Sequence record: JX128259
DNA from: Escherichia phage ECML-134
DNA: 64,000 bases
Strand: one strand, 5' to 3'
This document shows positions 30,758-56,796 of this stretch, in pieces (position 1 is the stretch's first letter; every line of letters begins with the position of its first letter). The notes beneath the pieces were generated by a model. It was not told where the DNA came from, made no database searches, and worked only from the letters and a program-made list of their open reading frames with translations. A program made the position numbers and the translations under genes.

Positions 30758-30767
30758 GGTATTTTCC

Positions 30768-30783: not shown

Positions 30784-30798
30784 GCCCCTCATTTTATT

Positions 30799-31164
30799 TT
30801 AAATATCAAATTCATTAAGAACTACATCAAAGATTGCTTCGAGATGTTCAGGTTTAGCTCTGTTACTCAGAATATGACGAATCCAAGTTTTAACCAAAAG
30901 CTTGCGATTAGCACCATTCCAACAAGGATGAGTCCCTAAATCGCGTTGACGAAAATCATCATCCAGAGCGATTTTAAAGTTGGAACCTTCCATTGTGATT
31001 GAAACCGTGATGCCATTTTCAAATCGCATATAAACGTAATTAGGAGTCATATACTGTTCAATTTCGCATACTGATCCATTTTGATGTTTCCAAAGGCAAA
31101 TAGTATCAATAGAACCTGCAATACCATTAGAAACATATTTACGTTCAAAGTTGATGTAGTTCAT
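30799..31164 (-). CDS. Small protein (30.6 position)
   Basis: 121 aa ORF. Confidence 0.65.
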   Translation of the reverse strand: MNYINFERKYVSNGIAGSIDTICLWKHQNGSVCEIEQYMTPNYVYMRFENGITVSITMEGSNFKIALDDDFRQRDLGTHPCWNGANRKLLVKTWIRHILSNRAKPEHLEAIFDVVLNEFDI

Positions 31165-31232
31165 TTTTATTCTCCGTGATGTTTAATTGCGGTACAGGTA
31201 TATAATATCATATCCTGTACCAAAGTAAACAA

Positions 31233-31565
31233 TTATTTTACTACTTTCCAATGCTTCATGTCAAGTTTACCAACTTTTTTCATCTTCTCAATTAAGCGTT
31301 CGGCACGTTGGCGAGCTGTAACATAATACCATTCACCTAATTCATTTTGTTCAATTTTTCCAACGATTACTGTATTCAATTCATAAATCCAACCGGTAAA
31401 GAAATTATGAACTTGAATTGTAAAGGTGAAATCTGTTCCCATACCTTCTGTTGTTTCTACTTCAATAATATCACCTTCAACTGCCATTAAGAACCACATA
31501 GTTTCATTATATTTACCATTGAAGCATTTAGTTTTAACTGCAGCGTTCAGATTAATCGTTTTCAT
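31233..31565 (-). CDS. Small protein (30.7 position)
   Basis: 110 aa ORF with AAGGAG Shine-Dalgarno and an early promoter upstream. Confidence 0.7.
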   Translation of the reverse strand: MKTINLNAAVKTKCFNGKYNETMWFLMAVEGDIIEVETTEGMGTDFTFTIQVHNFFTGWIYELNTVIVGKIEQNELGEWYYVTARQRAERLIEKMKKVGKLDMKHWKVVK

Positions 31566-31593
31566 TTTATTCTCCTTTGTTTGTGTAAGATAA

Positions 31594-31622
31594 TACTATC
31601 ACAAAGGAACCATATTGTAAAC
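31594..31622 (-). promoter_or_regulatory. T4-type early promoter (-35 GTTTAC, -10 TAGTAT)
   Basis: On the - strand: GTTTAC, 17-nt spacer, TAGTAT, then AAGGAG and ATG at 31565. Confidence 0.55.
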
Positions 31623-31653
31623 AACTTTGTGCAATCTTTGGAAAATAAAAAAG

Positions 31654-31671
31654 GACTCCCGAAGGAGTCCT
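31654..31671 (-). terminator. Hairpin (GGACTCC-cgaa-GGAGTCC) after the small basic-protein ORF
   Basis: Perfect 7-bp stem directly after the stop at 31676. Confidence 0.5.
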
Positions 31672-31675
31672 CAAC

Positions 31676-31894
31676 TTATGCTTTCTGCTTACCAAAACGA
31701 GAAGCATCATCTCGAAGAACCGCACGTGCTCGGCGCATGATCTTCTCAACAGTTTGATTGATACGAGAGTTCGACCCACGCTTGTAGCCAGCGCGTTTAG
31801 AATCACCAACTTTCTTTTCAACTGCTTTCTTTGCTTTAACTTGTTTTGCCATTATAAATTCTCTTTTAAATGAAAATGCAGGACTTATTGGCAT
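31676..31894 (-). CDS. Small, highly basic Lys/Arg-rich protein (30.8/30.9 region)
   Basis: ORF with an alternative start at 31852 (MAKQVKAKKAVEKK...); start not resolved. Confidence 0.55.
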   Translation of the reverse strand: MPISPAFSFKREFIMAKQVKAKKAVEKKVGDSKRAGYKRGSNSRINQTVEKIMRRARAVLRDDASRFGKQKA

Positions 31895-32073
31895 TGCCTG
31901 CGCAAGCCCTCAAGGGGGTACTTAGGTTTTGAATATTTACCGACAGGATAACCATAAACCTCGTCATCATACCACCAAGACTTACACAGATAACACTTTT
32001 CTGACGCATGATAGTAACATTCAAGAGGTACACCGTAAAACTGCCGGGGTCTTAAAACTATAATGATTCGCAA
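31885..32073 (-). CDS. Small Cys-rich protein (30.9 region)
   Basis: 62 aa ORF with several Cys and Tyr. Confidence 0.5.
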   Translation of the reverse strand: MRIIIVLRPRQFYGVPLECYYHASEKCYLCKSWWYDDEVYGYPVGKYSKPKYPLEGLRRQCQ

Positions 32074-32140
32074 ATCATTAATCAGACAGTTCGACGGCTC
32101 CTCGATTTAGCTCACACTAAGGCAGTGAATCTCCAATAAA

Positions 32141-32389
32141 TTACTTCAATGTTACCACAAAGTGACGAACTGCTTTTCGTGCAGCAGAAGCCAGAGGCTT
32201 AGCATATTTAAGTTCATCTTTTTCCTGAAGCTCAGCAGCTAATGCAGTTTGAGCAGGATTCAGATGTTTGAAATAACGCAGGATTTCAAGAGCTTCGGCT
32301 TCAACATCAATAGATGCGCCATAGTTTTCGTGACCATTATTCCATGCGTTTCGTTGCAGTTCAAGAGCGTGTTGTAATTGTTTAATCAT
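32141..32389 (-). CDS. rIII: rIII lysis-inhibition accessory protein
   Basis: 82 aa, T4 length and position upstream of gene 31. Confidence 0.85.
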   Translation of the reverse strand: MIKQLQHALELQRNAWNNGHENYGASIDVEAEALEILRYFKHLNPAQTALAAELQEKDELKYAKPLASAARKAVRHFVVTLK

Positions 32390-32536
32390 TTAAAAATTCT
32401 CGTTAGAGATTAAAACTCGGTAGTCACGTTCTTCTGAATTTCATCTTCTTTCGACAGATCTCTCAGTTGTAGACTACCACGTAGAATTGTTCGGTTAACA
32501 TATTATTCCGACACCCAATTCATATTATTATTTATA

Positions 32537-32872
32537 TCACTTATAAAGACATGGAATAGCTTTATAGTGGCAAGTGACGAATTTTTGTTTAATTTCTTTT
32601 GGCTGCTTAAGACCCAGAGCTACAAAAGGATGCGGAACGTTTCGAATTTGACCAACTGGAAGAGAAGTCAAATCACCAACTTCGCAGAAACCTTCAGGAA
32701 CATCAGGACCAACAGAGTGAACTACACACAGTTCAGGAACTTCACCTTGAACACGTTTACCGATAATAAGTCCTGATTCTGTAACTTCTTCATCACCGGC
32801 TTGTGCAGGTTCAGAAACTAAAATAACATATTCACCGACAGCACGAATTGGTAGCTGTTGTACTTCAGACAT
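32537..32872 (-). CDS. 31: gp31 co-chaperonin (GroES analogue)
   Basis: 111 aa, matches T4 gp31 length and position. Confidence 0.92.
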
Positions 32873-32928
32873 CGTTTTTCCTTTTTGTTAACAGATGAAT
32901 TAATAATAACAAATAATTCTTAAAGCAT

Positions 32929-33237
32929 TTATTTACCAATAAATTGGAGTAAATGCTCAACTTTCATACCATTAACGGAAATCAATTTGTCAATAGAAAA
33001 ACCTCGCCATGCACCAAGCTCGACATCAAACACTGGAATCATGTCAGTAGATTCTTTCCGAGTAGATTCAGTCAATTTACCAGTTTGCATGGTTGGCATA
33101 AAGTCTGCATCACGAGTACCTTTCATAGTACGAATAGTACCATCAGACTTTTCAAAAACTACGTTTGAAACACCCATGGACAATTTAGTTTTCAAAATTT
33201 CGCGAATTGCTACTTTCTGCTCAGTTGTCAGTTTCAT
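32929..33237 (-). CDS. Small protein (31.1 position)
   Basis: 102 aa ORF. Confidence 0.7.
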   Translation of the reverse strand: MKLTTEQKVAIREILKTKLSMGVSNVVFEKSDGTIRTMKGTRDADFMPTMQTGKLTESTRKESTDMIPVFDVELGAWRGFSIDKLISVNGMKVEHLLQFIGK

Positions 33238-33474
33238 TTATTTACCTATCACAGTTTTAATATGAGTTGTTCCACGTTCTTTAAGGGTGGAAAGTAATTT
33301 TTGGCATTTTTCTAAATCAGATTTCCAACTATATGGTCTATCAATACTAGTCCAATCAGTTTTATAATACTGTTTCCATTTAGAGAAAAAATATTTCTTA
33401 TACTCTACAGCAAATGAGATGTTCTCGTTAGAATAAGAACTAATTGCTGTGAGCTTTACCAAACGAAATTTCAT
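33238..33474 (-). CDS. Small protein (31.2 position)
   Basis: 78 aa ORF. Confidence 0.65.
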   Translation of the reverse strand: MKFRLVKLTAISSYSNENISFAVEYKKYFFSKWKQYYKTDWTSIDRPYSWKSDLEKCQKLLSTLKERGTTHIKTVIGK

Positions 33475-34055
33475 TATTCACCACAGAATTCGTTGATATT
33501 TTCCCAGTTTAACTTATTCAAGTTTTTCTTAGGAACATTAAACACTTCAATACCTGCATTTCGCAGAATATCATCCCAGCCAGGTTTATTTTTATCGTAT
33601 GTTTCACAATAAACCAGCTTTTTAATACCAGATTGAGCTATCGCTTTTGCACAATCTGGGCAAGGAGAAAGTGTTACATACATAGTAGCACCTTCAATAG
33701 AAGAACCATTTCGTGCAGCAAACAAAATTGCATTTAGTTCAGCATGAATTTCATTTTTAGACGACCATTCAGAGTGAGCGCTACGATGTTCTTTCGCCAA
33801 AACAAAACGATCAGTTGAACCAAATGATACGCATTCAGGCTTATGGCCTTGAATGATAGTGTGTTTAGGCTTATTCAACAACCAACCTTGCTCAGCAGCA
33901 TAATCACAACAGTTCACACCCCCTGCGGGTGAACCATTATACCCAGTAGAAATAATACGTCCATTCTTTTCAATTACTGCTCCTACCTTCCAGGAGCAAC
34001 ATTTTGATTCCTGTGATACTAAATATGCAATTTGAAGTACTGTACTCGCTTTCAT
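33474..34055 (-). CDS. cd: dCMP deaminase
   Basis: 193 aa; zinc-binding deaminase motifs HAELNAI and SPCPDCAKAI. Confidence 0.95.
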   Translation of the reverse strand: MKASTVLQIAYLVSQESKCCSWKVGAVIEKNGRIISTGYNGSPAGGVNCCDYAAEQGWLLNKPKHTIIQGHKPECVSFGSTDRFVLAKEHRSAHSEWSSKNEIHAELNAILFAARNGSSIEGATMYVTLSPCPDCAKAIAQSGIKKLVYCETYDKNKPGWDDILRNAGIEVFNVPKKNLNKLNWENINEFCGE

Positions 34056-34390
34056 TTCATAATCACCAGATAAGCAGATTTAGCAGTTTCAACACGATAA
34101 ATTTCGTGACGAAGTTTAGTTATACTTTTAATAACAGAACTAATTATATTCTGCCCATCTTTAAAGCGGTTTTTCTTATCAATAAAAATTGCGCCAACCA
34201 TCTTTTTGTGAAGCTCAACTGGATACTTCGTCACAATAATAGCATCATTCACAGAAGGATGAATACTATTCACCAGAGTATCATTCATTAAAGTTATTCT
34301 AATGAACTGTGCTGTTTCAGAATCAAGCGCTCTATGATCGCCAGTATCATTTTCAAGACAATTATCAATTATATCAGTTAAATTCATCAT
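34052..34390 (-). CDS. Small protein (cd.1 position)
   Basis: 112 aa ORF overlapping the cd start. Confidence 0.65.
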   Translation of the reverse strand: MMNLTDIIDNCLENDTGDHRALDSETAQFIRITLMNDTLVNSIHPSVNDAIIVTKYPVELHKKMVGAIFIDKKNRFKDGQNIISSVIKSITKLRHEIYRVETAKSAYLVIMK

Positions 34391-34626
34391 AGTACGCCAT
34401 ACACCCTTTGTGCTTCAACTAATCCATCAAAATCCAGTTTAAGATGCGATATTTGATCGCCATCACCTGGATTCACAATTACTAATACTGAACGAGGAGT
34501 TTCGGTAATAACACGAACCGATGTTTCAGGAAATCGTTCAGAAACCTTATTTACTAATTCCTGTGCAAATAGTTTAACTTTTTCTTGGAATTCTTTAACA
34601 GTAATTGGTTTTTCACTTAGCAGCAT
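34387..34626 (-). CDS. Small protein (cd.2 position)
   Basis: 79 aa ORF. Confidence 0.65.
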   Translation of the reverse strand: MLLSEKPITVKEFQEKVKLFAQELVNKVSERFPETSVRVITETPRSVLVIVNPGDGDQISHLKLDFDGLVEAQRVYGVL

Positions 34627-35147
34627 GTTGATCCCAGCTCCTTACTTTCAACGTTTTTAACTAATTTGACAGAAACTAATTCAGCATCTTGAGTAATCAT
34701 TACCGGACCTTCTTCATACTCTTCAAGATATTCTAGTGCTTTCTTTTTAGCTTCTTCCTTCGTATCAGTTTGAGCATAGATATAAAACATACAACCAGTA
34801 ATACCTACTACTTTCCACTTAATTTCTTTATCAGTTTTAATTTCAAATTTACTGACAGAATCATCTTTTTGAACTTCTTCGAAAAAAGAATATTCTAACA
34901 TATAAGCAATTGAAAATAGCGGGCTAACTTTATAGGATTCTCCCATTACATCAACAGCTTTATACCAGCAGTCATCAATTTCGCGTTTAATGCTAATAAC
35001 ATTTTTCGCAGGATCTATTTTTACTTTAAATGAATTTTCCCCAATAAACTGGGCAATTCGTTTATTAGCCCCGCAAGTTTCATTAAAAATATCTTTATAC
35101 CCAGTTTTAAAGCGATAAACCTTATCTTCTTCAAACCATTCGCTCAT
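34617..35147 (-). CDS. Protein at cd.3 position
   Basis: 176 aa ORF. Confidence 0.7.
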   Translation of the reverse strand: MSEWFEEDKVYRFKTGYKDIFNETCGANKRIAQFIGENSFKVKIDPAKNVISIKREIDDCWYKAVDVMGESYKVSPLFSIAYMLEYSFFEEVQKDDSVSKFEIKTDKEIKWKVVGITGCMFYIYAQTDTKEEAKKKALEYLEEYEEGPVMITQDAELVSVKLVKNVESKELGSTCC

Positions 35148-35210
35148 TTCAATTTCCTCATTTGTTTTTGGTAGAGCTATAATATCACAACTCTACCGTA
35201 AAGTAAACCA

Positions 35211-35516
35211 TTAAATCGCTTTGAATTCCGCAGTTTGAGATTCAAAGCGAATGTCGCCTTTGATAACTAGCTCAGCATCAAGACCGAATACAACAATGAT
35301 ATGCGCGGAACCTGGATACAACGTAATGGCAATAGAATCCACCTGGTCTGGAAGCAAAGTGTTCAATACATGAGTCACTTGAGCATGGATTCGAAGCTCA
35401 GCTGCGTTATCAAGTTTTTCAAACATATTATTAGCGATAATTTGGCTAAACACTACTTCTACGATTTTAGAGTAAGTCGGAAACATATTTACCTCACATA
35501 ATTTTCTTCGAGCCAA
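35211..35516 (-). CDS. Small protein (cd.4 position)
   Basis: 101 aa ORF. Confidence 0.65.
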   Translation of the reverse strand: MARRKLCEVNMFPTYSKIVEVVFSQIIANNMFEKLDNAAELRIHAQVTHVLNTLLPDQVDSIAITLYPGSAHIIVVFGLDAELVIKGDIRFESQTAEFKAI

Positions 35517-35681
35517 TCAATAACATCCAAAGCGTTATCAAAAGTTTCGCCATCTACTTTGTCTTCTGTTTCATAATCAAGAACATCTAGGCCTACTCTT
35601 CCGTCAACAATAGGCCATAGACAAAATAGATATTTCTTTTCTTTTTCAATTTTATCACAAAGACGATAAATCTTTTCTAGG

Positions 35682-35689
<8 letters not shown>
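35489..35689 (-). CDS. Small acidic protein (cd.5 position)
   Basis: 66 aa ORF. Confidence 0.6.
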
Positions 35690-37082
<1,393 letters not shown>

Positions 37083-37086
<4 letters not shown>

Positions 37087-37313
37087 TTATTTTTCTCAAC
37101 CAACGATTGAATATAATCATGCAGGTCTTTAGATGCTTTACCCCACTTATTTTGATATTCATTTTTAAGATTAGCTCGAGATTGAGCTAATAAAACATCA
37201 TTAGTTGGAGGTAAAGATTCTAACCGCTGAATCTGGCGTCCATAAATCATTGCAGCCATCTCGGATTCATAAATCAATCCTTTGAGATGCTCAAATTGAT
37301 GCCATGAAATCAT
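37083..37313 (-). CDS. Small protein between pseT and the spanin pair
   Basis: 76 aa ORF. Confidence 0.6.
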
Positions 37314-37609
37314 TTACATTTATCCTCTTTTAACTCTTGACGATAATAACATATCATAGTTTTCTGGTCGTGTACATATCGTTTTACATCATTAAGCCAA
37401 ATACGAAATTCCTGAGAATCTTCAAATGGCATACCGACCCAAGCTTTACCATCGATAACTTTAACTTGCCAAGATAGTTTAGCTTCATCATATGACTTTA
37501 TCTGCACAGGCCAATTAGGATGAACTGTTTCTTTCTTTACTTCTAGAGGCTTTGTCGAACAACCAACTAGAAGACCAATAGATAATATTACTGCTGATAG
37601 TTTAATCAT
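37310..37609 (-). CDS. Outer-membrane spanin (o-spanin lipoprotein; T4 pseT.2 equivalent)
   Basis: 99 aa; signal peptide with lipobox LLVGC; C-terminal Cys residues. Confidence 0.8.
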   Translation of the reverse strand: MIKLSAVILSIGLLVGCSTKPLEVKKETVHPNWPVQIKSYDEAKLSWQVKVIDGKAWVGMPFEDSQEFRIWLNDVKRYVHDQKTMICYYRQELKEDKCK

Positions 37610-37959
37610 TTAGAAAGGTCCTGGATGTCTTCTGCGAACTTGTTGAAGGAGTTGTTGATTTGTTTTTCAACCAATCCTGGCTTATGAGCCACCACATCCG
37701 CCTTCTTTGCGTCTTTGCGCAGCTTTTCATTTTCACGCTCAATAGCAGCAATTGCCTCACGATTTTTATTATTCATCGCATCAATATAATTATACTGAAT
37801 TCGCAAATTATTTAATGCTAAAGCGTTTTCATTGGCTGTTTTTGTAATTTCAGTAACTGATGTTTCTAATCTTTCTACCTTATTTTTTAAAATAATAGAT
37901 GTTCCGCCCAATGCTATTACAATTAATAGCAAACCTGCTGTCGTATTACTTAATTGCAT
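37606..37959 (-). CDS. Inner-membrane spanin (i-spanin; T4 pseT.3 equivalent)
   Basis: 117 aa; N-terminal transmembrane segment (AGLLLIVIALGGTSIIL) then a predicted coiled coil. Confidence 0.8.
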   Translation of the reverse strand: MQLSNTTAGLLLIVIALGGTSIILKNKVERLETSVTEITKTANENALALNNLRIQYNYIDAMNNKNREAIAAIERENEKLRKDAKKADVVAHKPGLVEKQINNSFNKFAEDIQDLSK

Positions 37960-38456
37960 AAAGTTTTAATAACCTCTATAATATCGTCTTGAGAAAGACC
38001 GTTAATTAAAATATGATGTTCAGCCGGAGATTTAGAAATTTTAAAGCATGCCTCAACATCTTCTGCCATATCCGATGCGCTACGATTTGGATTACTAATT
38101 CCAAGACGATGTTTTCCCGTCAAAGGATTAACGATGATGTAGCATTTGCAGCTATTGATATGAACATTGGGTTGAGTCTGATTAATGAACACTTCACAAT
38201 CATACTTAGCGAGTTGATTTTCTAAAAAGATTTTCATCTCTTCAACCGCATCAGGAAGCATATCACGGGCTTGCTCAAGACGACGATTTCGATATTCTTT
38301 AATGGTCGTTTTCCGCTTGACTTGCTTAGCTAAATCTTTCTTAAGATCGGTGATATATCCAACTCGACGATTTCCTTTAAATACAGAAATCCCATCCGTA
38401 GTATCACCGTATGCTTCAACGACCATTTCAGTAGTAATAAGCTGCAAATCCATCAT
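37950..38456 (-). CDS. alc: Alc, inhibitor of host transcription elongation
   Basis: 168 aa ORF at the T4 alc position with an early promoter upstream. Confidence 0.85.
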   Translation of the reverse strand: MMDLQLITTEMVVEAYGDTTDGISVFKGNRRVGYITDLKKDLAKQVKRKTTIKEYRNRRLEQARDMLPDAVEEMKIFLENQLAKYDCEVFINQTQPNVHINSCKCYIIVNPLTGKHRLGISNPNRSASDMAEDVEACFKISKSPAEHHILINGLSQDDIIEVIKTLCN

Positions 38457-38484
38457 AAAGTCCTCATGTTATGTCAGTAAGACT

Positions 38485-38514
38485 ACTATAACACAACACG
38501 AGGGACTTGTAAAC
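38485..38514 (-). promoter_or_regulatory. T4-type early promoter (-35 GTTTAC, -10 TATAGT) upstream of alc
   Basis: Near-identical copy of the promoter/leader block at 24688-24743. Confidence 0.65.
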
Positions 38515-38517
38515 AGC

Positions 38518-40105
<1,588 letters not shown>

Positions 40106-40132
40106 AATAAAATGGGCCTTGCGGCCCACTCC

Positions 40133-41311
40133 TTAAAAGTATTTTTTAAAACTCATCATAACTTTATCATCAACATCATTATCAATCTGTGCTACAAGGT
40201 AAGATGACAGTTCTACTTCTTGCGGCGCGGATTGAACATTATCAGAATTAAGGTATTCACGAATCCAAGGATATGGATGTTTAACCGGAGCATCGGTAAT
40301 TGGGCATGGAAGACCACACTGTTTCATACGAGATACAGTTAAGTAATCAATAAAGCTCCACATGCTATTTGTATTTAATCCAGGAACATCGCCATCTTTA
40401 AATAAATGAACTGCCCAATCTTTTTCTTGGCGGTTAACTTCCATGAAAATATCAACTGCTTCTTGTTCACACTCTTGAGCAATTTTAACCCATTCATCGC
40501 CATCAGTGCCAAGTTGAAGTTGACGAATAATATATTGAGTGCCTTTAAGGTGAAGCTGCTCATCACGTGCAATAAACTTCATAATCTTGGCATTACCTTC
40601 CATGATTTCCATGTTCTTATGGAAGTTAAAGGTACATGCAAAAGATACATAAAAACGAATAGCTTCTAAGGCATTAATAACGTGTAAACAGAGGTAAAGA
40701 GACTTCATTAAAGCGCGTTTAGCTTCGGCTTCTTGCTTAATAGCTCGGTTTAAACGAAAGTCGGCATCAGGAGATTCTTTAGCTAGTTCTACAAATTCTT
40801 TAGCATTTTCCCATTCACGGGTTTTAATCAGAACATCATCATAATAGCGACCGATAGATTCAGCACGTTTCATGATAGCTTCATCTAATACAATCTCATC
40901 AAATACCTTTGACGGATCAGTATAAAGATTTCGCATGATATGAGTATATGAACGACTGTGAATAGTTTCACTAAAAGTCCATGTAGCAACCCATGTATCA
41001 AGGCTTGGGTCTGAAATTAATGACATAAGTACAGCAGACGGCGCACGGCCCTGAATGCTATCCAAAAGTGATTGATACTTCAGGTTGTTAGTAAAAATAT
41101 TTTGCTGATACTGAGGAAGCTTATTAAACTGTGCAGCATCCATCATTAAGTTTACTTCTTCCGGGCGCCAGAAAAATGACAATTGCTTTTCGGTCAAATC
41201 TTCAAAAACTTTATGGCGTTGAATATCATAACGCGCAATACCAAGACCTGAACCAAAAAACATAGGTTCTTTTAAAACATCAACTGGATTTGTGTTAAAA
41301 ATTGTGCTCAT
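40133..41311 (-). CDS. nrdB: Ribonucleotide reductase small subunit, uninterrupted (no intron)
   Basis: Continuous 392 aa ORF. Confidence 0.93.
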   Translation of the reverse strand: MSTIFNTNPVDVLKEPMFFGSGLGIARYDIQRHKVFEDLTEKQLSFFWRPEEVNLMMDAAQFNKLPQYQQNIFTNNLKYQSLLDSIQGRAPSAVLMSLISDPSLDTWVATWTFSETIHSRSYTHIMRNLYTDPSKVFDEIVLDEAIMKRAESIGRYYDDVLIKTREWENAKEFVELAKESPDADFRLNRAIKQEAEAKRALMKSLYLCLHVINALEAIRFYVSFACTFNFHKNMEIMEGNAKIMKFIARDEQLHLKGTQYIIRQLQLGTDGDEWVKIAQECEQEAVDIFMEVNRQEKDWAVHLFKDGDVPGLNTNSMWSFIDYLTVSRMKQCGLPCPITDAPVKHPYPWIREYLNSDNVQSAPQEVELSSYLVAQIDNDVDDKVMMSFKKYF

Positions 41312-41362
41312 AAATTTTCCGCTTAGTTAATAGTTGGTGACTCGTCCGTGAGTCAAATTATA

Positions 41363-43627
41363 TCATAATTTACAGGATGAACAATCTTCAGCTTTTGGAG
41401 TTTCTATTTCATAATCATCAGTACCAGAACCATCACGGGTATTATGATAATAGAAATTTTTTCCGCCAAAATACCAGAAATACAAAAGGTCATCAATCAT
41501 TATTGACATTGGAACCTTTCCTTTTGGAAAAATCTGCGGGTCATAGTATGTATTCGCTGAAGCTGATTGACATACCCATTTCAGCATAATAGCTACTTGC
41601 GTAAGATAAGGTTTATTACCTTTCTTAGCTAATTTCCATGTATAATCATATAGGTCTATGTTATGCTCAATATTGGGCACGACTTGATTAAAGGAGCCCT
41701 CTTTTGATTCTTTAACAGAGACTGGTCCACGTGGAGGCTCGATACCGTTTGTACTGTTAGAAACTTGGGAAGATGACTCACATGGCATAAGTGCTGATAA
41801 TGTGCTATTACGGATGCCAAAGAGCTTAAGGTCTTCCCGCAGCGACGACCAGTCACAAACGTATTTTGGAGCTGCGATTTGGTCAATCTTTTTATTGTAC
41901 CAGTCGATAGGTAATTCGCCTCGAGACCAACGAGTGTCTGAATAATATTCGCAAGGTCCTTTTTCTTTGGCGAGATTAATGGATGCTTTAATGAGTCCAT
42001 ACTGTAATCTCTCAAATAGTTCATGTGTTAAATCGTTAGCATCTTCATAAGAAGCAAAGTTACTTGCCAGCCAAGCTGCATAGTTGGTAACACCTACACC
42101 AAGGTTACGACGCTTTTTAGCTTTTTCTGCTTCAGGAACTGGATATCCTTGGTAATCCAAAAGATTATCAAGAGCACGAACTTGAACTTCTGCCAATTCA
42201 TTAATTTTATCTTGGTCTTGCCAATCAAAATTATCTAGTACGAATGCAGAGAGAGTACACAATCCAATTTCAGCATCAGGACTATTCACATCATTTGTTG
42301 GAATAGCAATTTCACAGCACAAGTTACTCTGACGAATAGGTGCCTTTTCACGAATAAACGGAGTATAGTTATTCGTATTATCAATGAACTGTACATAAAT
42401 CCTTGCTGTTCCTGAACGTTCAGTCATGAGCAATTCAAATAGTTCACGGGCTTTAATACGCTTTTTACGAATATTAGGATCTTTTTCTGCTGCTTCGTAT
42501 AATTCACGGAAACGGTCTTGGTCTTTAAAATAAGAATAATAAAGCTCGCCACCCATTTCATGCGGACTGAACAAAGTAATGTAATCGTTCTTTCCAAAAC
42601 GTTCCATCATCAAATCATTCAGCTGAACACCATAATCCATATGACGAATGCGGTTTTCTTCTACGCCTTTGTTATTTTTCAAAACGAGAAGATTTTCAAC
42701 TTCCAAATGCCAAATAGGATAATAAGCAGTAGCAGCGCCGCCACGAATTCCACCCTGTGAACATGATTTAACTGCAGTCTGAAAATGTTTCCAAAAAGGA
42801 ATAACACCAGTATGACGTACTTCACCCATGCCAATCTTAGAACCTTCAGCACGAATCATACCAACGTTAATACCAATTCCAGCGCGTTTAGAGATATATT
42901 CAACAATTGAAGCGGAAGCCTTATTGATAGACTTCAGCGAATCACCTGCCTCAATAACAACGCATGAACTGAACTGTCGAGTCGGAGTACGACAACCAGC
43001 CATAATAGGAGTTGGCAATGAAATCTGTCGAGTAGATACTGCTTCATAAAAACGAATAACATGTTTTAATCTATCAACAGGTTCATCTTGATGCAATGCC
43101 ATTCCAATAGTCATAAATGCAAACTGTGGAGTTTCATAAATTTGACCAGTGGTTTTATCTTTAACTAAATATTTTTCTTTTAATTGCATCGCCCCGGAAT
43201 AAGTAAATTCCATATCCCGTTCGTGCTTAATTTTTGATTCTAAAAATGTAATTTCTTCTGCTGAATATTTTGACAACAATTCAGGGTCATATTTACCTGC
43301 ATTTACACAATAAGAAATATGGTCAATAAATGAACGTGGTTCATACTGCCCATAAACATGCTTACGAAGAGCGAACATTAAACAGCGTGCAGCTACATAT
43401 TGATAATCAGGCTCTTCAACCGAAATAGAATTCGCAGCGGCCTTAATGACAATAGTCTGAATATCATCAGTTGTCATTCCATCACGGAGATATGATTTAA
43501 TATTTTCATATAATTCATAAGGATCTACTGATGTTCCCTCAGCTGCCCAAGATAAAACTTTAATAATTTTTTGCGGGTCAAAGCTCTGAGAAACACCACT
43601 ACTTTTGATAACATTAATTAATTGCAT
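41363..43627 (-). CDS. nrdA: Ribonucleotide reductase large subunit
   Basis: 754 aa, matches T4 NrdA length; only ~50 nt separate it from nrdB. Confidence 0.96.
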   Translation of the reverse strand: MQLINVIKSSGVSQSFDPQKIIKVLSWAAEGTSVDPYELYENIKSYLRDGMTTDDIQTIVIKAAANSISVEEPDYQYVAARCLMFALRKHVYGQYEPRSFIDHISYCVNAGKYDPELLSKYSAEEITFLESKIKHERDMEFTYSGAMQLKEKYLVKDKTTGQIYETPQFAFMTIGMALHQDEPVDRLKHVIRFYEAVSTRQISLPTPIMAGCRTPTRQFSSCVVIEAGDSLKSINKASASIVEYISKRAGIGINVGMIRAEGSKIGMGEVRHTGVIPFWKHFQTAVKSCSQGGIRGGAATAYYPIWHLEVENLLVLKNNKGVEENRIRHMDYGVQLNDLMMERFGKNDYITLFSPHEMGGELYYSYFKDQDRFRELYEAAEKDPNIRKKRIKARELFELLMTERSGTARIYVQFIDNTNNYTPFIREKAPIRQSNLCCEIAIPTNDVNSPDAEIGLCTLSAFVLDNFDWQDQDKINELAEVQVRALDNLLDYQGYPVPEAEKAKKRRNLGVGVTNYAAWLASNFASYEDANDLTHELFERLQYGLIKASINLAKEKGPCEYYSDTRWSRGELPIDWYNKKIDQIAAPKYVCDWSSLREDLKLFGIRNSTLSALMPCESSSQVSNSTNGIEPPRGPVSVKESKEGSFNQVVPNIEHNIDLYDYTWKLAKKGNKPYLTQVAIMLKWVCQSASANTYYDPQIFPKGKVPMSIMIDDLLYFWYFGGKNFYYHNTRDGSGTDDYEIETPKAEDCSSCKL

Positions 43628-43944
43628 AAGTCCTCAACTTGAAAATCGTCTTTAAACAGTCGGTTAACTATATGAGCTATTATATCACCATGACACGGAT
43701 TTGGTTTACATGTGCATCCTAGCCTCATTCCACGTAAAGGCTCTAAATGTGCTTTAGTTATTTCTCCGGATTTAATTCGACGTATAAAATCTTTTTTGAA
43801 TAATTCAATGGCAGCCGGGAGGCTGCCAGCATCTTTACCGACGTAATTTCCCCAAAATGTACCACGGTGAATATTAACATCAAAGTCGGATTTATATTTA
43901 TTCACTACCTGGCATAGACGGCCCGCGCGGTGATAATTCGTCAT
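43618..43944 (-). CDS. Small protein (nrdA.1 position), possibly DUF4326-like
   Basis: 108 aa; C-terminal motif [15 protein letters not shown]. Confidence 0.6.
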
Positions 43945-44173
43945 ATTGTTTTTCCGTTAAAACAGTAATATCATAGTAACAATCAGAAGAAGTTTTAACT
44001 GTAGAAATTTTATTATCAAAATACTCACGAGTCATTTTATGAGTATAATATTTTTTGCCATAAATGATAATAGGCTGATTTGGTCCTGGAACTTCTAGCT
44101 CACTTGGATTAGGAAGTGTAAAAAGAACTACACCAGAAGTATCTTTAAATCGTAAAATCATATATCCTCGCAA
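43898..44173 (-). CDS. Small protein (nrdA.2 position)
   Basis: 91 aa ORF. Confidence 0.6.
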
Positions 44174-44184
44174 TTAAATTGAAA

Positions 44185-44496
44185 TTACACCGCCATCTTT
44201 CCTTTAATTGGCGGGTGAGATACATAGTTGTTAAGAACAAAATTATGCGGCTTTGCGAATTGACTCAACCAAAATACCTGCGATTCTGTGTTCCATTCAT
44301 CAAATTCATCTGGAAATTTTAATTGTAATTCGCATAAATCCATAGGTTCACGACGCAAAATTTCTTTACATTGTTCTACGTGATTCATATAGATATGAGT
44401 ATTACCGCCAGAAAATATCAAATCTCCAGGAATAAGATTACACATCTTAGCTACAATATGAACTAACGCAGCATATGATGCAATATTAAACGGTAG
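44185..44496 (-). CDS. td: Thymidylate synthase exon 2 (103 codons)
   Basis: Exon begins CTACCGTTTAATATTG immediately after the intron 3' end ...AACATAATG. Confidence 0.93.
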   Translation of the reverse strand, partial: LPFNIASYAALVHIVAKMCNLIPGDLIFSGGNTHIYMNHVEQCKEILRREPMDLCELQLKFPDEFDEWNTESQVFWLSQFAKPHNFVLNNYVSHPPIKGKMAV

Positions 44497-45512
44497 CATT
44501 ATGTTCAGATAAGGTCGTTAATCTTACCCCGGAATTATATCCAGCTGCATGTCACCATGCAGAGCAGACTATATCTCCAACTTGTTAAAGCAAGTTGTCT
44601 ATCGTTTCGAGTCACTTGACCCTACTCCCCAAAGGGATAGTCGTTAGGCATTTATGTAGAACCAATTCCATTTATCAGATTTTACACGATAAGTAACTAA
44701 TCCAGACGAAATTTTAAAATGTCTAGCTGCATCTGCTGCACATTCAAAAATAACCCCATCACATGAAATCTTTTTAATATTACTAGGCTTTTTACCTTTC
44801 ATCTTTTCTGATATTTTAGATTTAGTTATGTCTGAATGCTTATGATTAAAGAATGAATTATTTTCACCTGAACGATTTCTGCATTTACTACAAGTATAAG
44901 CAGAAGTTTGTATGCGAACACCACACTTACAAAACTTATGGGTTTCTGGATTCCAACGCCCATTTTCACTTCCATATTTACCATAAAGAGCTTTTCGGCC
45001 TTTTACGCCGAGTTTAAGCATATTTACTTTAACAGTTTCAGAGCGTTTCTTGATAATTTCTTCTTTTAATGGATGTGTAGAACATGTATCACCAAACGTT
45101 GCATCAGCAATATTGTATCCATTAATTTTAGAATTAAGCTCTTTAATCCAAAAATTTTCTCGTTCAATAATCAAATCTTTCTCATATGGAATTTCTTCCA
45201 AAATAGAACATTCAAACACATTACCATGTTTGTTAAAAGACCTCTGAAGTTTTATAGAAGAATGGCATCCTTTTTCTAAATCTTTAAAATGCCTCTTCCA
45301 TCTCTTTTCAAAATCTTTAGCACTTCCTACATATACTTTATTGTTTAAAGTATTTTTAATCTGATAAATTCCACTTTTCATAAATACCTCTTTAAATATA
45401 GAAGTATTTATTAAAGGGCAGTCCTACAATTTAGCACGGGATTGTCTACTAGAGAGGTTCCCCGTTTAGATAGATTACAAGTATAAGTCACCTTATACTC
45501 AGGCCTCAATTA
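44497..45512 (-). mobile_element. Group I self-splicing intron in td (1016 nt) carrying I-TevI
   Basis: Intron 5' end TAATTGAGGCCTGAGTATAAGGTGACTTATACTTGTAATCTATC matches the recalled T4 td intron; length 1016 nt; exons sum to 286 codons. Confidence 0.92.
44644..45381 (-). CDS. I-TevI: I-TevI GIY-YIG intron homing endonuclease
   Basis: 245 aa inside the td intron; GIY-YIG motif GIYQIKNTLNNKVYVGSA and C-terminal zinc-finger/DNA-binding region. Confidence 0.95.
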   Translation of the reverse strand: MKSGIYQIKNTLNNKVYVGSAKDFEKRWKRHFKDLEKGCHSSIKLQRSFNKHGNVFECSILEEIPYEKDLIIERENFWIKELNSKINGYNIADATFGDTCSTHPLKEEIIKKRSETVKVNMLKLGVKGRKALYGKYGSENGRWNPETHKFCKCGVRIQTSAYTCSKCRNRSGENNSFFNHKHSDITKSKISEKMKGKKPSNIKKISCDGVIFECAADAARHFKISSGLVTYRVKSDKWNWFYINA

Positions 45513-46061
45513 ACCCAAGAAAACATCTACTGAGCGTTGATACCATTGAAGGTCAAGGTATCCATTACGCACATTAAACTGATAGAACATATGACAAGGC
45601 GGTAATGCCATATATTTAAGTTCAGCTGGATTCCATGCAGAAACAATTTGACGCCTATCATTTGGCAATTTTTTAATACGATCAACAACTTCTATAATTT
45701 GGTCTACACCGCCAAAATCGCGCCATTGTTTTCCATAAATTGGACCAAGTTCACCGCTATGGTATCCTAAATCTTTTGCTTGATTTTCGTAATTTTCATC
45801 CCAGACTGTTTTGCCTTGAATTAATGAATCATGTTGAATTAATCGTAAATCATTGACATTTGTGCTTCCCGATAAAAACCATATTAGCTCAGCAATGCAA
45901 GCTTTCCAGGCGAGCTTCTTAGTTGTTACTGCAGGAAAACCTTTAGTTAAATCCCAGCGTAATTTAGTACCGAACAAAGCAATTGTTCCTGTGCCCGTTC
46001 TGTCATCGGTTTCATAGCCATTTTCAAAAATGTCTTTAATTAAATCTTGGTATTGTTTCAT
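45513..46061 (-). CDS. td: Thymidylate synthase exon 1 (183 codons)
   Basis: MKQYQDLIKDIFENGY...; exon ends ...TTCTTGGGT at the 5' splice site. Confidence 0.95.
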
Positions 46062-46106
46062 TTAGTACCTTATATAAATTATAATACATTTTATGAAGCT
46101 AAATAA

Positions 46107-46454
46107 TCAATACGGTTTAGCATCAAATTTTCTCTCAATTTCAGGCGTGAAATATAATTCTTTACCGCGTTTGGAAAAGCGACCAATAATATGATAATTA
46201 TTCTCATCAAACGTAATATTACCAATATCCATAGCTTTCAACCAAATATCGATATTTCTATCCAGCTTTATGTCAAAATTCCAATACGGAGAACTATTAC
46301 CGAAAATACTGCAAGCAGATTCAGTGAAACAACTGCTATAAATCTTGTCTTTAGGAACTACTAATTGATAGACACCTTTAATAAACTGAGGACCCTGCCA
46401 TTTAGGTTGTTTCACGTCTTTTTCTAATAGAATAGGGTAATAATTAAAATTCAT
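46107..46454 (-). CDS. Hypothetical protein encoded between frd and td
   Basis: ORF with GTG at 46466 or ATG at 46454 (MNFNYYPILLEK...), about 115 codons; no motif I recognise. Confidence 0.6.
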   Translation of the reverse strand: MNFNYYPILLEKDVKQPKWQGPQFIKGVYQLVVPKDKIYSSCFTESACSIFGNSSPYWNFDIKLDRNIDIWLKAMDIGNITFDENNYHIIGRFSKRGKELYFTPEIERKFDAKPY

Positions 46455-46474
46455 ATTTTCCGCCACGCGTTATT

Positions 46475-47301
<827 letters not shown>

Positions 47302-47311
47302 ATTATTTTCC

Positions 47312-47554
47312 TCAGACAGACTTTTTCACAATTTTCCAATCAGCTTTAAACTGCTCGACGTCAGAATGGTAAATCCAGAATCCTGCGCTTTCTCCGTCTT
47401 CATAAAGAGGACATCCATCGCATTCATCTTCCCATCCCATATCACGTAAAAGATGTTCAGCTTTTTCAACAAGTTCAGAATCTTTACCGATGATATTAAA
47501 ATACCATTTACCTCTAACTTCCGAATCTTTAATGCTCTGACGTTGTAATCTCAT
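47312..47554 (-). CDS. Small protein (frd.2 position)
   Basis: 80 aa; AAGGAG Shine-Dalgarno. Confidence 0.7.
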   Translation of the reverse strand: MRLQRQSIKDSEVRGKWYFNIIGKDSELVEKAEHLLRDMGWEDECDGCPLYEDGESAGFWIYHSDVEQFKADWKIVKKSV

Positions 47555-47692
47555 TTTATTCTCCTTAGCAAGCTTTAATCAAAAGATATAAACAAACCAA
47601 CATAACTGCTGCCATAATATAAGGTGCGAACATTTTCTTTTCTCCATTAGTTTTGATAGGGTAATAGTATCACACTACTACCCTGTTGTAAA

Positions 47693-48079
47693 CTACTTTT
47701 TGAAAGTTTTTCGCAAAAGTTCAATGATTTCATCTACATTGTTTTCATCTACAATGCAGTGAATTTTTGTTACACCAGAAACCTTGTCTTTAACTTCATC
47801 CTCTTCAGAAGTCGGTTCTTTATATTCGCGGAAACAATAAAACTCTTCTTCACTAAGTTCAAAATAATCATCACCCATACCATCATCATTATAGATTTCA
47901 CCATTAGCACAAATGATTTCGGTTACATAATCAAATCCATCTAAACTTGATATTGATTTAACTTCAAACCAACCACCATTTTCTTGAATGATGCCGACCA
48001 TATTAGCATTTGATGAACTAATATCAATGAAAGATTTAATACGGTGTGGATTTAACTCGTATTTTTTGCCGATTTCCAT
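47693..48079 (-). CDS. Acidic protein (frd.3 position)
   Basis: 128 aa from ATG at 48079 with GAGGAAAA upstream; the ORF-track start at 48136 is TTG and runs through a hairpin. Confidence 0.65.
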   Translation of the reverse strand: MEIGKKYELNPHRIKSFIDISSSNANMVGIIQENGGWFEVKSISSLDGFDYVTEIICANGEIYNDDGMGDDYFELSEEEFYCFREYKEPTSEEDEVKDKVSGVTKIHCIVDENNVDEIIELLRKTFKK

Positions 48080-48125
48080 TTTGATTTTCCTCATTTTTAA
48101 TAGGGGCTTAATAGCCCCTTGATAA

Positions 48126-48353
48126 TTATTGTTCAATCAGTCCCATGTAAAATTCTGCGTCTTCAGCATCCATACCGTCGCAGTATTCATTAGCCATAAA
48201 GCGGGTGAGGTCTTCAAGAGGACCTTCAATAACGATTTGAATACTCCAAAACTTAGAATCTTGCACGCTTGTAATACTAAGTTCAGGATAACGATTACGA
48301 ATAATCTCTTCAATATATTCAAAATCAACGATGTCAATATCAACTTTAGCCAT
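48126..48353 (-). CDS. Small acidic protein downstream of gene 32
   Basis: 75 aa from ATG at 48353 (MAKVDIDIV...) with GAGGAAAA upstream. Confidence 0.6.
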
Positions 48354-48396
48354 ATTATTTTCCTCTTCAATTATTAGCAGTATTGCTGATAGTTGT

Positions 48397-48426
48397 ATAG
48401 TACCATGGAAGGACAAGGATGTAAAC
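48397..48426 (-). promoter_or_regulatory. T4-type early promoter (-35 GTTTAC, -10 TACTAT)
   Basis: On the - strand: GTTTAC, 18-nt spacer, TACTAT, upstream of the 48126..48353 ORF. Confidence 0.5.
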
Positions 48427-48445
48427 AGTTTTGTGAAAAATTTTT

Positions 48446-48476
48446 AAAATAAAAAAGGGGACCTCTAGGGTCCCCA
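48446..48476 (-). terminator. Rho-independent terminator of gene 32 (GGGGACCCuagaGGUCCCC plus U-run)
   Basis: Perfect GC stem then TTTTTTTATTTT on the - strand, 20 nt after the gene 32 stop. Confidence 0.75.
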
Positions 48477-48497
48477 ATTAATTAGTAATATAATCTA

Positions 48498-49406
48498 TTA
48501 AAGGTCATTCAAAAGGTCATCCAGGTCCGTGTCATCAGCACTAGATGAACTGCCAGAGCTTGAGCTCATAAAATCATCTTCAGTTTTTGTATTGAAGTCA
48601 TCAACATTGAATGCATCCAAATCATCAGCAACTTTATCAGCTTTCTTAGCAGCAGTCGCTGCGGCACCACCCATTGCAGCAGTTCCCATAACTTGACCGA
48701 ATTTAGTGCTCAGTTCTTCAAATGATTTGAATTTATCTTTAGAAGTCATTTCAGAAAGGTCAACCATTTGTTCGAACAGTTCTTTCTGGAAAGATTCATC
48801 GTCAATGTTTGGAATCGCAGATTGATTCAGGAATTTAGATTCGTCGTAGTTACTAAAACCAGAAACTTGTTTAACTTTCAGTACAAAGTTAGCACCTTCC
48901 CACGGACAAGTTACATCAACCGGAGTTTCACCCATTTCAACATCAACTGCAATCATTGCATTGATTTTATCCCAGATTTTCTTACCGAAACGATATTTAA
49001 ATACTTTACCTTCGTTTTCTGGAGCAGCTGGGTCTTTTACAACAAGAATGTTAGCCCAGTAAGAAGTTTTACGTTTAACAAGACTGTACTCTTTATTGTC
49101 AGTGTTGTACAAATCATTTTTACTGATGTACTGACATACTGGACAAGAATCGTAATCACCGTAGGTAGATGAGCATGTTTCGATATACCATTTACCATTT
49201 TTCTTGAAACCGTGATTTACAAGAAGTGCGAATGGTGCTTGTTCATCATTTTTAGACGGAAGAAAACGAATTACTGCTTGGCCGTTACCCGCATTGTCGA
49301 GTTTCAGTTTCCACTCGCCTTTATCTTCAGAAGAAAAACCACCTTTATTTCCAGCCAGTTTAGCCATTTGCGCAGCGAGTTCAGCAGTAGATTTACGTTT
49401 AAACAT
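48498..49406 (-). CDS. 32: Single-stranded DNA-binding protein gp32
   Basis: Matches recalled T4 gp32 including the acidic, Ser-rich C-terminus. Confidence 0.97.
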
Positions 49407-49500
49407 TTTTATTTCCTTTTTAATTTAATTAACAGTTGGTGCTATGACGATGTATGACCTCATAGCTGGTCAGTGAGATAATTATAATCTATTTATAATA
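49407..49500 (-). promoter_or_regulatory. Gene 32 leader: late promoter (TATAAATA on -, 49490-49497) and AU-rich 5'UTR, likely the autoregulatory translational operator
   Basis: TATAAATA on the - strand, then a structured segment, then the AU-rich tract TTAATTAAATTAAAAAGGAAATAAAA before the ATG. Confidence 0.55.
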
Positions 49501-49505
49501 AGCAA

Positions 49506-50159
49506 TTAATACTTGCAAGATTTCACAGTTTCAATGAAAACATTTTTAGCTTTCTGTGAATCAATATTTAAAATTTTTCTATAAGCCTTTAACTTTATAG
49601 AATAATTATTCCAGACTAAATTATCAGTCTGTTCATCATGTTTATCAATTATATTTAAAAACGAATCAAGCAAGATAAACGTTTCAAACGAAATTATATT
49701 CGATTGAAGTAGTTTAAAAATATAACTTGATTGAACTTTTGGATTATACTCAAAGATTTCTTTAAAAGCAGAAACTTCAACTTTTTTACTAAAATAGTAA
49801 ATATTGCGAATATCTTCTTCAAACTTAAATTTAATTTGCTTTAAGCGTCCGATATATTCACGATAAAACACAAGTGCATCAGCGTCAGAGATGTCACCAA
49901 TCCAAGCATCTTGGTTAGCAACCAAATTACTTATAAAAATTAAAGCAAGTTCCTTTAATTTATATTTTTCTGATAACTTCTGGAAAAAATACTTATCCCT
50001 TCGCTTTTGATAAGCGGCATCAGACACCCGCATGCACCAATTATACTTAATAACATCATACTTTCCATTCATATGCTGTTTTATCATTAAGTATAATTTA
50101 TAAACTGATTTACCATCAATGTATCTTTCACCACCAGCAGGCATGCGGAGTTTAATCAT
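49506..50159 (-). CDS. 59: gp59 helicase loader
   Basis: 217 aa, matches recalled T4 gp59. Confidence 0.95.
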   Translation of the reverse strand: MIKLRMPAGGERYIDGKSVYKLYLMIKQHMNGKYDVIKYNWCMRVSDAAYQKRRDKYFFQKLSEKYKLKELALIFISNLVANQDAWIGDISDADALVFYREYIGRLKQIKFKFEEDIRNIYYFSKKVEVSAFKEIFEYNPKVQSSYIFKLLQSNIISFETFILLDSFLNIIDKHDEQTDNLVWNNYSIKLKAYRKILNIDSQKAKNVFIETVKSCKY

Positions 50160-50494
50160 AGTAGAAAATCTAATGTATTAGTTTTTTCACAACGAACAAC
50201 AGGAGGACGTAAAAGATTTTCGTCAATGGCTTCTGACTGAATTTTTTCAATTATACCCGAAGGAATAAATTTAGCAAATTGAGTTTCAGGAATAGAGTTT
50301 TCTTCCAAGAATGCTGTCGTAGCTTCAAGATAACTCATTCCAAACTCTTCTACCATTTTTTCAATAATAAATCCATTTTCTTGACGATCAAGAAGCTTTG
50401 CTATTTCATCCTTTTCTTTTTTGATTGAAAGTTCTTTTTCTGAAAGACCGGTCTCATCGACCGGACGAATATCATTTAGAGAAAACTGTGTCAT
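50156..50494 (-). CDS. 33: gp33 late-transcription co-activator
   Basis: 112 aa from MTQFSLNDIRP...; overlaps the dsbA 3' end. Confidence 0.9.
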   Translation of the reverse strand: MTQFSLNDIRPVDETGLSEKELSIKKEKDEIAKLLDRQENGFIIEKMVEEFGMSYLEATTAFLEENSIPETQFAKFIPSGIIEKIQSEAIDENLLRPPVVRCEKTNTLDFLL

Positions 50495-50741
50495 AAAGTT
50501 CAACTACCTCTTCAGTTTCAGCTTCAAACACATCACGATTATCTTTATGATACAAAGCTAATAGACGATTAAACATCTTACCATCAACGCCAAGTTCATC
50601 TTTAGCACGAATTCGAATATCTTTAATCAGTTCATTATAACCGGAAATTTTCAGTTTATGATCAGATGCTTCTTTAATAAATTTAGCCAAGTCTTCGCCA
50701 TGGATAGCTTCATCAAATTCAACCATTTCTTTTTTAGCCAT
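50472..50741 (-). CDS. dsbA: DsbA double-stranded DNA-binding protein
   Basis: 89 aa, T4 position between rnh and 33. Confidence 0.88.
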   Translation of the reverse strand: MAKKEMVEFDEAIHGEDLAKFIKEASDHKLKISGYNELIKDIRIRAKDELGVDGKMFNRLLALYHKDNRDVFEAETEEVVELYDTVFSK

Positions 50742-56795: not shown

Positions 56796-56796
56796 T

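Follow-up and report, generated by a model that had tools for sequence, protein, structure and literature searches.

Escherichia phage ECML-134 (sequence record JX128259) carries, within the 64,000-nucleotide stretch analysed here (hereafter the window), an nrdB gene without an intron and short spacers at the nrdA/nrdB and 32/59 junctions, which are three places at which phage T4 harbours an intron or homing endonuclease genes. This raises the question of whether these loci retain an ancestral endonuclease-free arrangement or have lost their mobile elements secondarily, and whether the unoccupied sites would be targets for homing in a mixed infection. The coordinates of the features considered are collected in Table 1. 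Position 40106, at which the initial annotation had started this locus, is located 27 nt inside denA (39695..40129), and the stop codon of nrdB starts at 40133.

Table 1. Features of the window, with the T4 (NC_000866) intervals that are deleted in it according to the whole-window BLAST
Feature	Window position	Strand	Deleted T4 interval	Remarks
18/19 ORF	1531..2136	+		Putative free-standing homing endonuclease, 201 aa; four-Cys zinc module, then HNH-like motif
segD	8178..8849	-		Free-standing GIY-YIG endonuclease gene between 23 and 24; 100% aa identity to T4 SegD, full length (tblastn)
segE	13707..14324	+		Free-standing GIY-YIG endonuclease gene between inh and uvsW; 98.5% aa identity to T4 SegE, full length (tblastn)
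nrdB	40133..41311	-		Class Ia ribonucleotide reductase beta subunit; continuous 392-codon ORF, intron-less
Empty site of T4/RB3 nrdB group I intron	40635..40636	-	138457-139058	nrdB nt 676/677; 598-nt gap exactly here
MobE-target region as mapped in T2 nrdB	41156..41198	-		nt 114-131, codon 42 and FFWRPEE block
FFWRPEE-coding block	41156..41176	-		From alignment
nrdB codon 42, AAG	41186..41188	-		From alignment with T2, T4 and T6
nrdA-nrdB spacer, empty mobE/nrdB.1 site	41312..41362	-	139719-140420	51 nt
nrdA	41363..43627	-		Ribonucleotide reductase alpha subunit, ORF; last ~35 nt T2-type
td exon ORFs flanking I-TevI	45510..46061 and 44185..44499			
I-TevI	44644..45381	-		GIY-YIG endonuclease in td intron; 96.7% aa identity to T4 I-TevI
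Gene 32	48498..49406	-		ssDNA-binding protein, SegG target gene; mosaic allele, mostly T2-like
59-32 spacer, empty segG site	49407..49505	-	147918-148542	99 nt
Late-promoter-like box TATAAATA	49490..49497			In 59-32 spacer; putative role, from spacer sequence and T4 literature
Gene 59	49506..50159	-		ORF

Relationship of the window to T4 and other T-even phages

A 5.5-kb query around the nrdA/nrdB site retrieved 989 phage records, with 471 of these matching at 95-99% identity. Whole-window BLAST against positions 90000-168903 of T4 (NC_000866) revealed that T4 99024..162749 is colinear with the window, with the same gene order, few indels and ~96-97% identity over most of the 64 kb. Among the indels were three clean deletions in the window, situated at the exact boundaries of T4 elements, such that T4 alone possesses a 598-nt intron in nrdB, a 700-nt insert encoding nrdB.1 and mobE, and a 623-nt insert encoding segG. 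The initial annotation had stated that T4 carries the I-TevIII intron in nrdB, mobE between nrdA and nrdB, and segG near gene 32. All three statements agreed with the T4 reference annotation, in which nrdB is a two-piece join with I-TevIII inside, mobE is accompanied by nrdB.1 in the nrdA-nrdB interval, and segG lies between 32 and 59; the alignments to T4, T2 and T6 that had been called for likewise found the three sites of the window empty. The segD and segE genes and the td intron with I-TevI are common to T4 and the window, whilst T4 lacks an ORF between genes 18 and 19 and four small ORFs that the window encodes. The degree of identity together with the several indels supports the assignment of the window as a T-even (Tequatrovirus) segment, from a relative of T4 rather than from T4 itself, as had been proposed.

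Phage T2 (AP018813.1) has the same intron-less NrdB of 392 aa and the same lengths of the nrdA-nrdB (51 nt) and 59-32 (99 nt) spacers as the window, yet four elements of the window, namely segD, segE, the I-TevI-bearing td intron and the 18/19 ORF, are absent from it. Phage T6 (AP018814.1) shares with the window the intron-less nrdB as well as segD, segE, I-TevI and the 18/19 ORF, but differs in harbouring a full-length mobE (213 aa) in the nrdA-nrdB interval and, after uvsW, an additional endonuclease gene.

Escherichia phage vB_EcoM_SCS4 (ON506924.1, hereafter SCS4) was found to be in exact register with the window (window position + 96000), in that the coordinates of nrdB, nrdA, 32 and 59 and the three empty sites are identical. 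The ~2% of substitutions between the two are patchily distributed, reaching 8% in nrdB, and blocks of 0% divergence alternate with blocks of 2-12%, indicative of a fine-scale mosaic. Within these 16 kb, divergence peaks in the 5' half of nrdB together with the adjoining hypervariable loop of NrdB, where it reaches 7-12%, the remainder showing 0-4%.

The exact register with ON506924.1, without indels over the 40 kb compared, alongside ~2% substitutions and the presence of N bases in that record, is a pattern that can arise from reference-guided consensus calling, and the empty sites could in principle be an assembly or consensus artefact, for instance where insertions were collapsed during a reference-guided assembly. 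This is extremely improbable, as the ORFs at all three sites are intact and in frame, the same junctions recur in the independent sequences of hundreds of phages, T2, RB32, RB33 and (for the 32/59 site) T6 among them, and the haplotypes on either side agree with unoccupied sites.

The intron-less nrdB gene

The nrdB ORF, which had been described as continuous over 392 codons, was confirmed as such, and its product matched the Pfam family PF00268 (Ribonuc_red_sm) over residues 33-335 of 392 (E 8.6e-37; 127.5 bits against a cut-off of 33.6). Residues 46-52 of NrdB form the motif FFWRPEE, invariant in the window, T2, T4 and T6, the tryptophan of which is the conserved radical-transfer tryptophan (PMC2790892). 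The amino acid identity of NrdB was ~92% to T2 (366 of 396 alignment columns) and ~91% to T4 (362 of 396), with a variable segment (aa ~160-205) in which the T2 protein differs from that of the window.

In an alignment of the gene with the T4 nrdB locus, the sole large gap was one of 598 nt following nrdB nt 676. An intron in nrdB, which would have overturned the initial description, was sought again, and the T4 intron aligned to this gap in an otherwise uninterrupted ORF. A scan of 39000-51000 with Rfam at gathering thresholds returned no match, a result that is uninformative alone since the td group I intron was also missed, and the absence of an nrdB intron hence rests on the T4 alignment and the intact ORF.

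The homing site of I-TevIII in the window is identical to that of T2 over ~64 nt (about -34 to +30), and differs from the T4 exon sequence that has been used as a substrate by one mismatch, an A for G at -2. I-TevIII cuts close to its own insertion site, 14 and 16 bp upstream (PMC1865063), a geometry that would place its cuts at ~40650-40652 of the window. In T4, however, I-TevIII is a defunct, degenerate relic (PMC2988022).

The nrdA/nrdB junction and the MobE target

The interval between nrdA and nrdB, previously estimated at ~50 nt, was measured at 51 nt, and is equal in length to that of T2 with four substitutions. At this position T4 has 700 nt comprising nrdB.1 and mobE, and T6 has its 213-aa mobE. 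A search for a terminator-like site in the 51-nt spacer found none, and phages devoid of mobE have been reported to have no terminator there (PMC2790892). The final ~35 nt of nrdA are also of the T2 type, rather than the mobE-linked type of nrdA 3' end that is found in T4 and T6.

MobE-dependent nicks have been mapped in vivo to codon 42 of T2 nrdB, adjoining the polymorphic nt 114-131 and the FFWRPEE-coding block, and this codon was described in 2009 as AAG in all phages lacking mobE (PMC2790892). Alignment of the corresponding region demonstrated that codon 42 is AAG in the window and in T2, CGG in T4 and AAA in T6, the T4 and T6 codons being embedded in surrounding sequence quite different from that of the window and T2. 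Across the first 200 nt of nrdB, the window was 95% identical to T2, relative to 81% for T4 and 80.5% for T6, both of which carry mobE.

The nrdB of SCS4 did not follow this pattern, since SCS4 is without mobE and nonetheless has a T6/T4-like allele at the MobE site, with AAT as codon 42. As sequenced, SCS4 shows that mobE and its linked nrdB allele can be uncoupled, and its non-AAG codon contradicts the 2009 generalisation, an observation that appears mildly new and that stands outside the main finding. Given the AAG codon of the window, the AAT codon of the mobE-less SCS4 and the local divergence of 7-12%, it is possible, though we suggest it tentatively, that susceptible and resistant alleles persistently compete in the 5' half of nrdB, segregating independently of the presence of the endonuclease gene. 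If this were general, target-site haplotypes would constitute a genome-wide record of past cycles of endonuclease invasion and loss.

The same polymorphism bears on whether the empty sites of the window may have become immune, their targets having drifted or been selected such that MobE, I-TevIII or SegG no longer cut them. Relative to T2 there are two differences in the 18 nt of nt 114-131 and another two, both synonymous, in the FFWRPEE-coding block; the intron site carries A at -2 where the T4 exon has G; and nowhere in the 16 kb aligned with SCS4 is polymorphism higher than in the 5' half of nrdB. However, each of the four MobE-region differences from T2 affects a third codon position and is synonymous, and codon 42 is the susceptible AAG (PMC2790892). 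The I-TevIII site, furthermore, is that of T2 throughout the ~64 nt compared. Enzymes of these homing endonuclease families recognise long sites and tolerate numerous substitutions within them (reviewed in PMC2988022), and immunity of the sites is accordingly improbable.

The gene 32/59 junction and the origin of the empty sites

The gap between 32 and 59 (49407..49505), given as ~100 nt in the initial annotation, measured 99 nt. This spacer is identical in the window, T2 and T6, with the window and T6 identical (100%) over 300 nt, and in T4 the 623 nt of segG replace window positions 49470..49504 according to BLAST. The spacer contains a late-promoter-like box and probably holds the gene 32 leader (pseudoknot/operator region), by analogy with the roles described in T4 (PMC2988022, PMC535899). 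A scan of both spacers that covered sigma-70-type promoters only returned nothing above shuffled expectation.

Gene 32 itself was found to be mosaic. Of the 40 positions that distinguish T2 from T4 in this gene, 27 match T2 in the window, 12 match T4 and one matches neither. The window is T2-like at nt 264, 276, 295 and 297, near which SegG reportedly cuts. The title of Liu et al. (2003) ascribes to SegG a 'distant cleavage site', one inside gene 32, and the cut reportedly falls 332 bp from the segG insertion site. As a sign of a SegG target, the T2-like bases at nt 264-297 are only suggestive.

This mosaicism is relevant to an alternative origin of the empty sites, in which an ancestor had the nrdB intron, mobE and/or segG, and the sites have reverted to the empty state rather than never having been invaded, either through precise deletion of the elements or, as is more likely, through recombination with a relative lacking the endonucleases, in a cycle of invasion, degeneration and loss. 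Such a history would be consistent with the alternation of 0% and 2-12% divergence blocks against SCS4, with the mixture of T2-type and T4-type polymorphisms in gene 32, with the uncoupling of element and allele in SCS4, and with the degenerate state of I-TevIII in T4 itself (PMC2988022). The spacers, in contrast, contain no remnant of the intron, mobE or segG and have the length and very nearly the sequence of those of T2, and the nrdB 5' region together with the nrdA 3' end constitutes a T2-type haplotype rather than a mobE-linked one. Simple deletion is particularly disfavoured because mobE and segG of T4 carry embedded promoters of nrdB and gene 32, which their deletion would remove (PMC2988022, PMC2790892). 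Secondary loss is hence regarded as unlikely, and ancestral emptiness of the three sites as the preferred reading.

Other endonuclease genes of the window

The segD, segE and I-TevI genes, which had been noted as retained, are all full-length, with the amino acid identities to T4 given in Table 1. The I-TevI protein matched the Pfam families PF01541 (GIY-YIG), PF22635 (I-TevI_ZnF) and PF20987 (I-TevI_DNA-bd), all above their cut-offs. The distribution of these genes and of the other elements among the T-even phages is listed in Table 2. The endonuclease occupancy of the window is intermediate between those of T2 and T6/T4, as is expected of a mosaic T-even genome.

Table 2. Presence (+) or absence (-) of mobile elements in the window and three T-even phages
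Element	Window	T4	T2	T6
18/19 ORF	+	-	-	+
segD	+	+	-	+
segE	+	+	-	+
Gene after uvsW	-	-	-	+
nrdB intron	-	+ (relic)	-	-
mobE	-	+	-	+
td intron/I-TevI	+	+	-	+
segG	-	+	-	-

The 18/19 ORF fills an insertion of 642 nt between genes 18 and 19 that is found in neither T4 nor T2. Homologues were present in 237 phage records from several host genera, with amino acid identities of 98.5% in T6 and ~50% in RB3. An alignment of 37 homologues revealed that C51, C54 and C73 are invariant and C76 nearly so, and that residues 150-188 encompass an invariant Y-Q-x-D-H ... N-L ... W-x-x-N-R-x-K, constituting a conserved D-H...N...N catalytic motif on a beta-beta-alpha-metal fold. No family was matched in Pfam (E<=10) or NCBIfam (E<=1), BLASTP detected no similarity to T6 MobE, and the ORF belongs to phrog_5104, a group of unknown function. 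The earlier designation of this ORF as an HNH gene is thus borne out by motif and fold, but not by a match to a curated profile.

The four small ORFs that are not in T4 (34617..35147, 36784..37086, 46107..46466 and 47056..47301) were considered as further endonuclease genes and rejected, as the profile searches gave no GIY-YIG or HNH signal for them and they fell only into PHROGs of unknown function. Equivalents of these ORFs are present in T2 and T6.

Prevalence of the empty sites

Approximately 531 of the 657 phage records matching the nrdB intron site were contiguous across it, and at least 80% of a T4-type nrdB intron was detected in 118 records. The nrdA/nrdB junction was contiguous in 424 of 561 matching records, with a full T4-type nrdB.1-mobE in only 20 and any part thereof in 143. 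The search with a 300-nt query for the 32/59 junction joins pieces <650 nt apart and consequently counts segG-bearing phages as covered, hence a segG query was used, which identified segG in 142 phage records relative to ~499 matching the junction region. The denominators of these frequencies are rough, being derived from separate BLAST searches among redundant records that include many laboratory isolates of T4, whilst their direction is unambiguous, in that the empty state is that of the majority of sequenced Tequatrovirus phages and T4 is the exception. T4 has indeed been portrayed as exceptional, with 15 homing endonuclease genes that are unequally distributed among its closest relatives (PMC2790892, PMC2993671), T2 and T6 having 1 and 11, respectively (PMC2993671). 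Endonuclease-free sites are therefore already known, having long been described for T2, and are not peculiar to the phage of the window.

Predicted homing at the empty sites

From the observed anatomy of the three loci, their identity of architecture with T2, the types of allele that flank them and their frequencies in the population, we conclude that the window very probably derives from a relative of T4, T2 and T6 in which these loci are in the ancestral endonuclease-free arrangement, as in T2, with flanking alleles of the T2 type, which enzymes encoded by T4 are known to cut. Nothing is functionally 'missing' from the window: nrdB is translated from its single continuous ORF, and the signals of nrdB and gene 32, for which T4 relies on the 3' ends of mobE and segG, would be situated in the short spacers.

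The sites of the window would be expected to act as recipients. If the same host cell also received a phage that encodes MobE, SegG or a functional I-TevIII, these sites would be nicked or cut at nrdB codon 42, at 14 and 16 bp upstream of the nrdB intron site, or within gene 32; the break would be repaired off the donor genome, and the endonuclease gene would be copied in along with flanking donor markers, resulting in homing, co-conversion and marker exclusion. That the sites are susceptible to cleavage is a reasonable prediction from their sequences. The initial annotation had gone further in naming the junctions themselves as predicted homing targets; the T2-type alleles favour the presence of targets, but the cuts of MobE and SegG fall inside nrdB and gene 32, and for these two endonucleases the junctions are insertion sites, not cleavage sites. 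Moreover, because I-TevIII of T4 is defunct, the nrdB intron would enter from a co-infecting T4 only in trans, via MobE (PMC2790892).

The importance of these observations beyond correct annotation is likely to be small. For annotators, they imply that the intron and endonuclease genes of T4 are not to be expected at these sites, and in phage cocktails or recombination studies involving T4, local marker exclusion would be expected around nrdB and gene 32. A mixed infection with T4 is predicted to result in preferential inheritance of its mobE, nrdB intron and segG with their flanking markers, which would repeat the T2 experiments of 2003 and 2009. T2 is the classical recipient in T4 homing and marker-exclusion crosses, with empty sites of the same kind for which this behaviour was shown experimentally, and it is this phage that the window, as a T-even relative, resembles at three well-studied homing sites.

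Comparison of the nrdB region with phage SCS4

The entire window (1..64000) was found to lie in exact coordinate register with positions 96001..160000 of Escherichia phage vB_EcoM_SCS4 (ON506924.1), with no indels across the compared 24 kb and 16 kb. The two sequences differed by approximately 2% substitutions, which were patchily distributed: divergence was 0 per 500 nt at window 35001-37000 and at 44501-46000, which spans the td intron and I-TevI, and rose to 7-12% in the 5' half of nrdB (40501-41500). The ON506924.1 record also contains N bases, and the patchy divergence could reflect either natural mosaicism or consensus calling guided by a reference.

SCS4 does not encode mobE, and its nrdA-nrdB spacer is identical to that of the window. 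The MobE nick region of its nrdB, however, carries T6/T4-like sequence in which codon 42 is AAT, whereas AAG has been stated to occupy this codon in all mobE-less phages (PMC2790892). SCS4 is an exception to that statement.

A hypervariable NrdB segment containing indels falls in the stretch that separates the MobE nick site from the intron insertion site. Within this segment, the window was just 57-66% identical to T2, T4 and T6 and 75% identical to SCS4, but 96% identical to phage ZCEC14, whilst NrdB was nearly invariant elsewhere.

Features of the window and of SCS4 discussed in the text
Feature	Position	Strand	Size	Remarks
ORF of gene 18/gene 19 junction	window 1531..2136	+		family with four-Cys zinc module and HNH-like motif
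alt	window 24741..26804		687 aa	single gene
Small ORF	window 34617..35147	-	176 aa	no T4 equivalent
Small ORF	window 36784..37086	-	100 aa	no T4 equivalent
Hypervariable NrdB segment	window ~40690..40830			nrdB nt ~480-620, NrdB aa ~160-205
SCS4 nrdB	L009 (SCS4 piece matching window 35001..51000) 5133..6311			compared with window 41156..41198
td	window 44185..46061			split
Small ORF	window 46107..46466	-	119 aa	no T4 equivalent
Small ORF	window 47056..47301	-	81 aa	no T4 equivalent
Gene 32 leader	window 49407..49470	-		
Distal tail-fibre genes 36-38	window 57003..61444			
ORF	window 60638..61438		266 aa	located where T6 has its annotated tail fibre adhesin

Detection of introns and endonuclease genes

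In the window as in T4, the two parts of td clearly lie on either side of I-TevI, yet an Rfam scan at gathering threshold reported no group I intron there, presumably because the long ORF insert breaks the covariance-model match. This null result from Rfam should not serve as evidence of intron absence.

The family of the 18/19 ORF, for which there is no Pfam or NCBIfam model, was found in 237 phage records, from T4-like phages of Escherichia, Klebsiella, Acinetobacter, Serratia, Shewanella and Sinorhizobium, and its members are usually annotated as hypothetical. The four small ORFs have equivalents in the T2 and/or T6 annotations; they matched solely PHROGs of unknown function (3710, 2364, 1928 and 3183) and gave no endonuclease signal.

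Several public annotations were found to be incorrect. The pseT homologue is named 'HNH homing endonuclease' in the ZCEC14 record. In those of T2 (AP018813) and T6 (AP018814), nrdB is entered as 'thymidylate synthase', nrdA as 'single stranded DNA-binding protein' and segE as 'tail tape measure protein'. Counts of endonuclease genes by name in records of this kind would mislead.

Comparison with T2, T4 and T6

The alt region is unlike that of T4, which encodes alt, alt.-1 and alt.-2, and the single alt gene of the window also contrasts with the two paralogues of T2 and T6. The distal tail-fibre genes have likewise diverged from T4. In T4, the regulatory pseudoknot of the gene 32 leader shares its 5' part with the segG reading frame (PMC535899). 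The leader of the window, which reads GAGGTCATACATCGTCATAGC in place of GAGG---TAAAGTGTCATAGC in T4, lacks one AATTA repeat present in T4, and is identical to those of T2 and T6.
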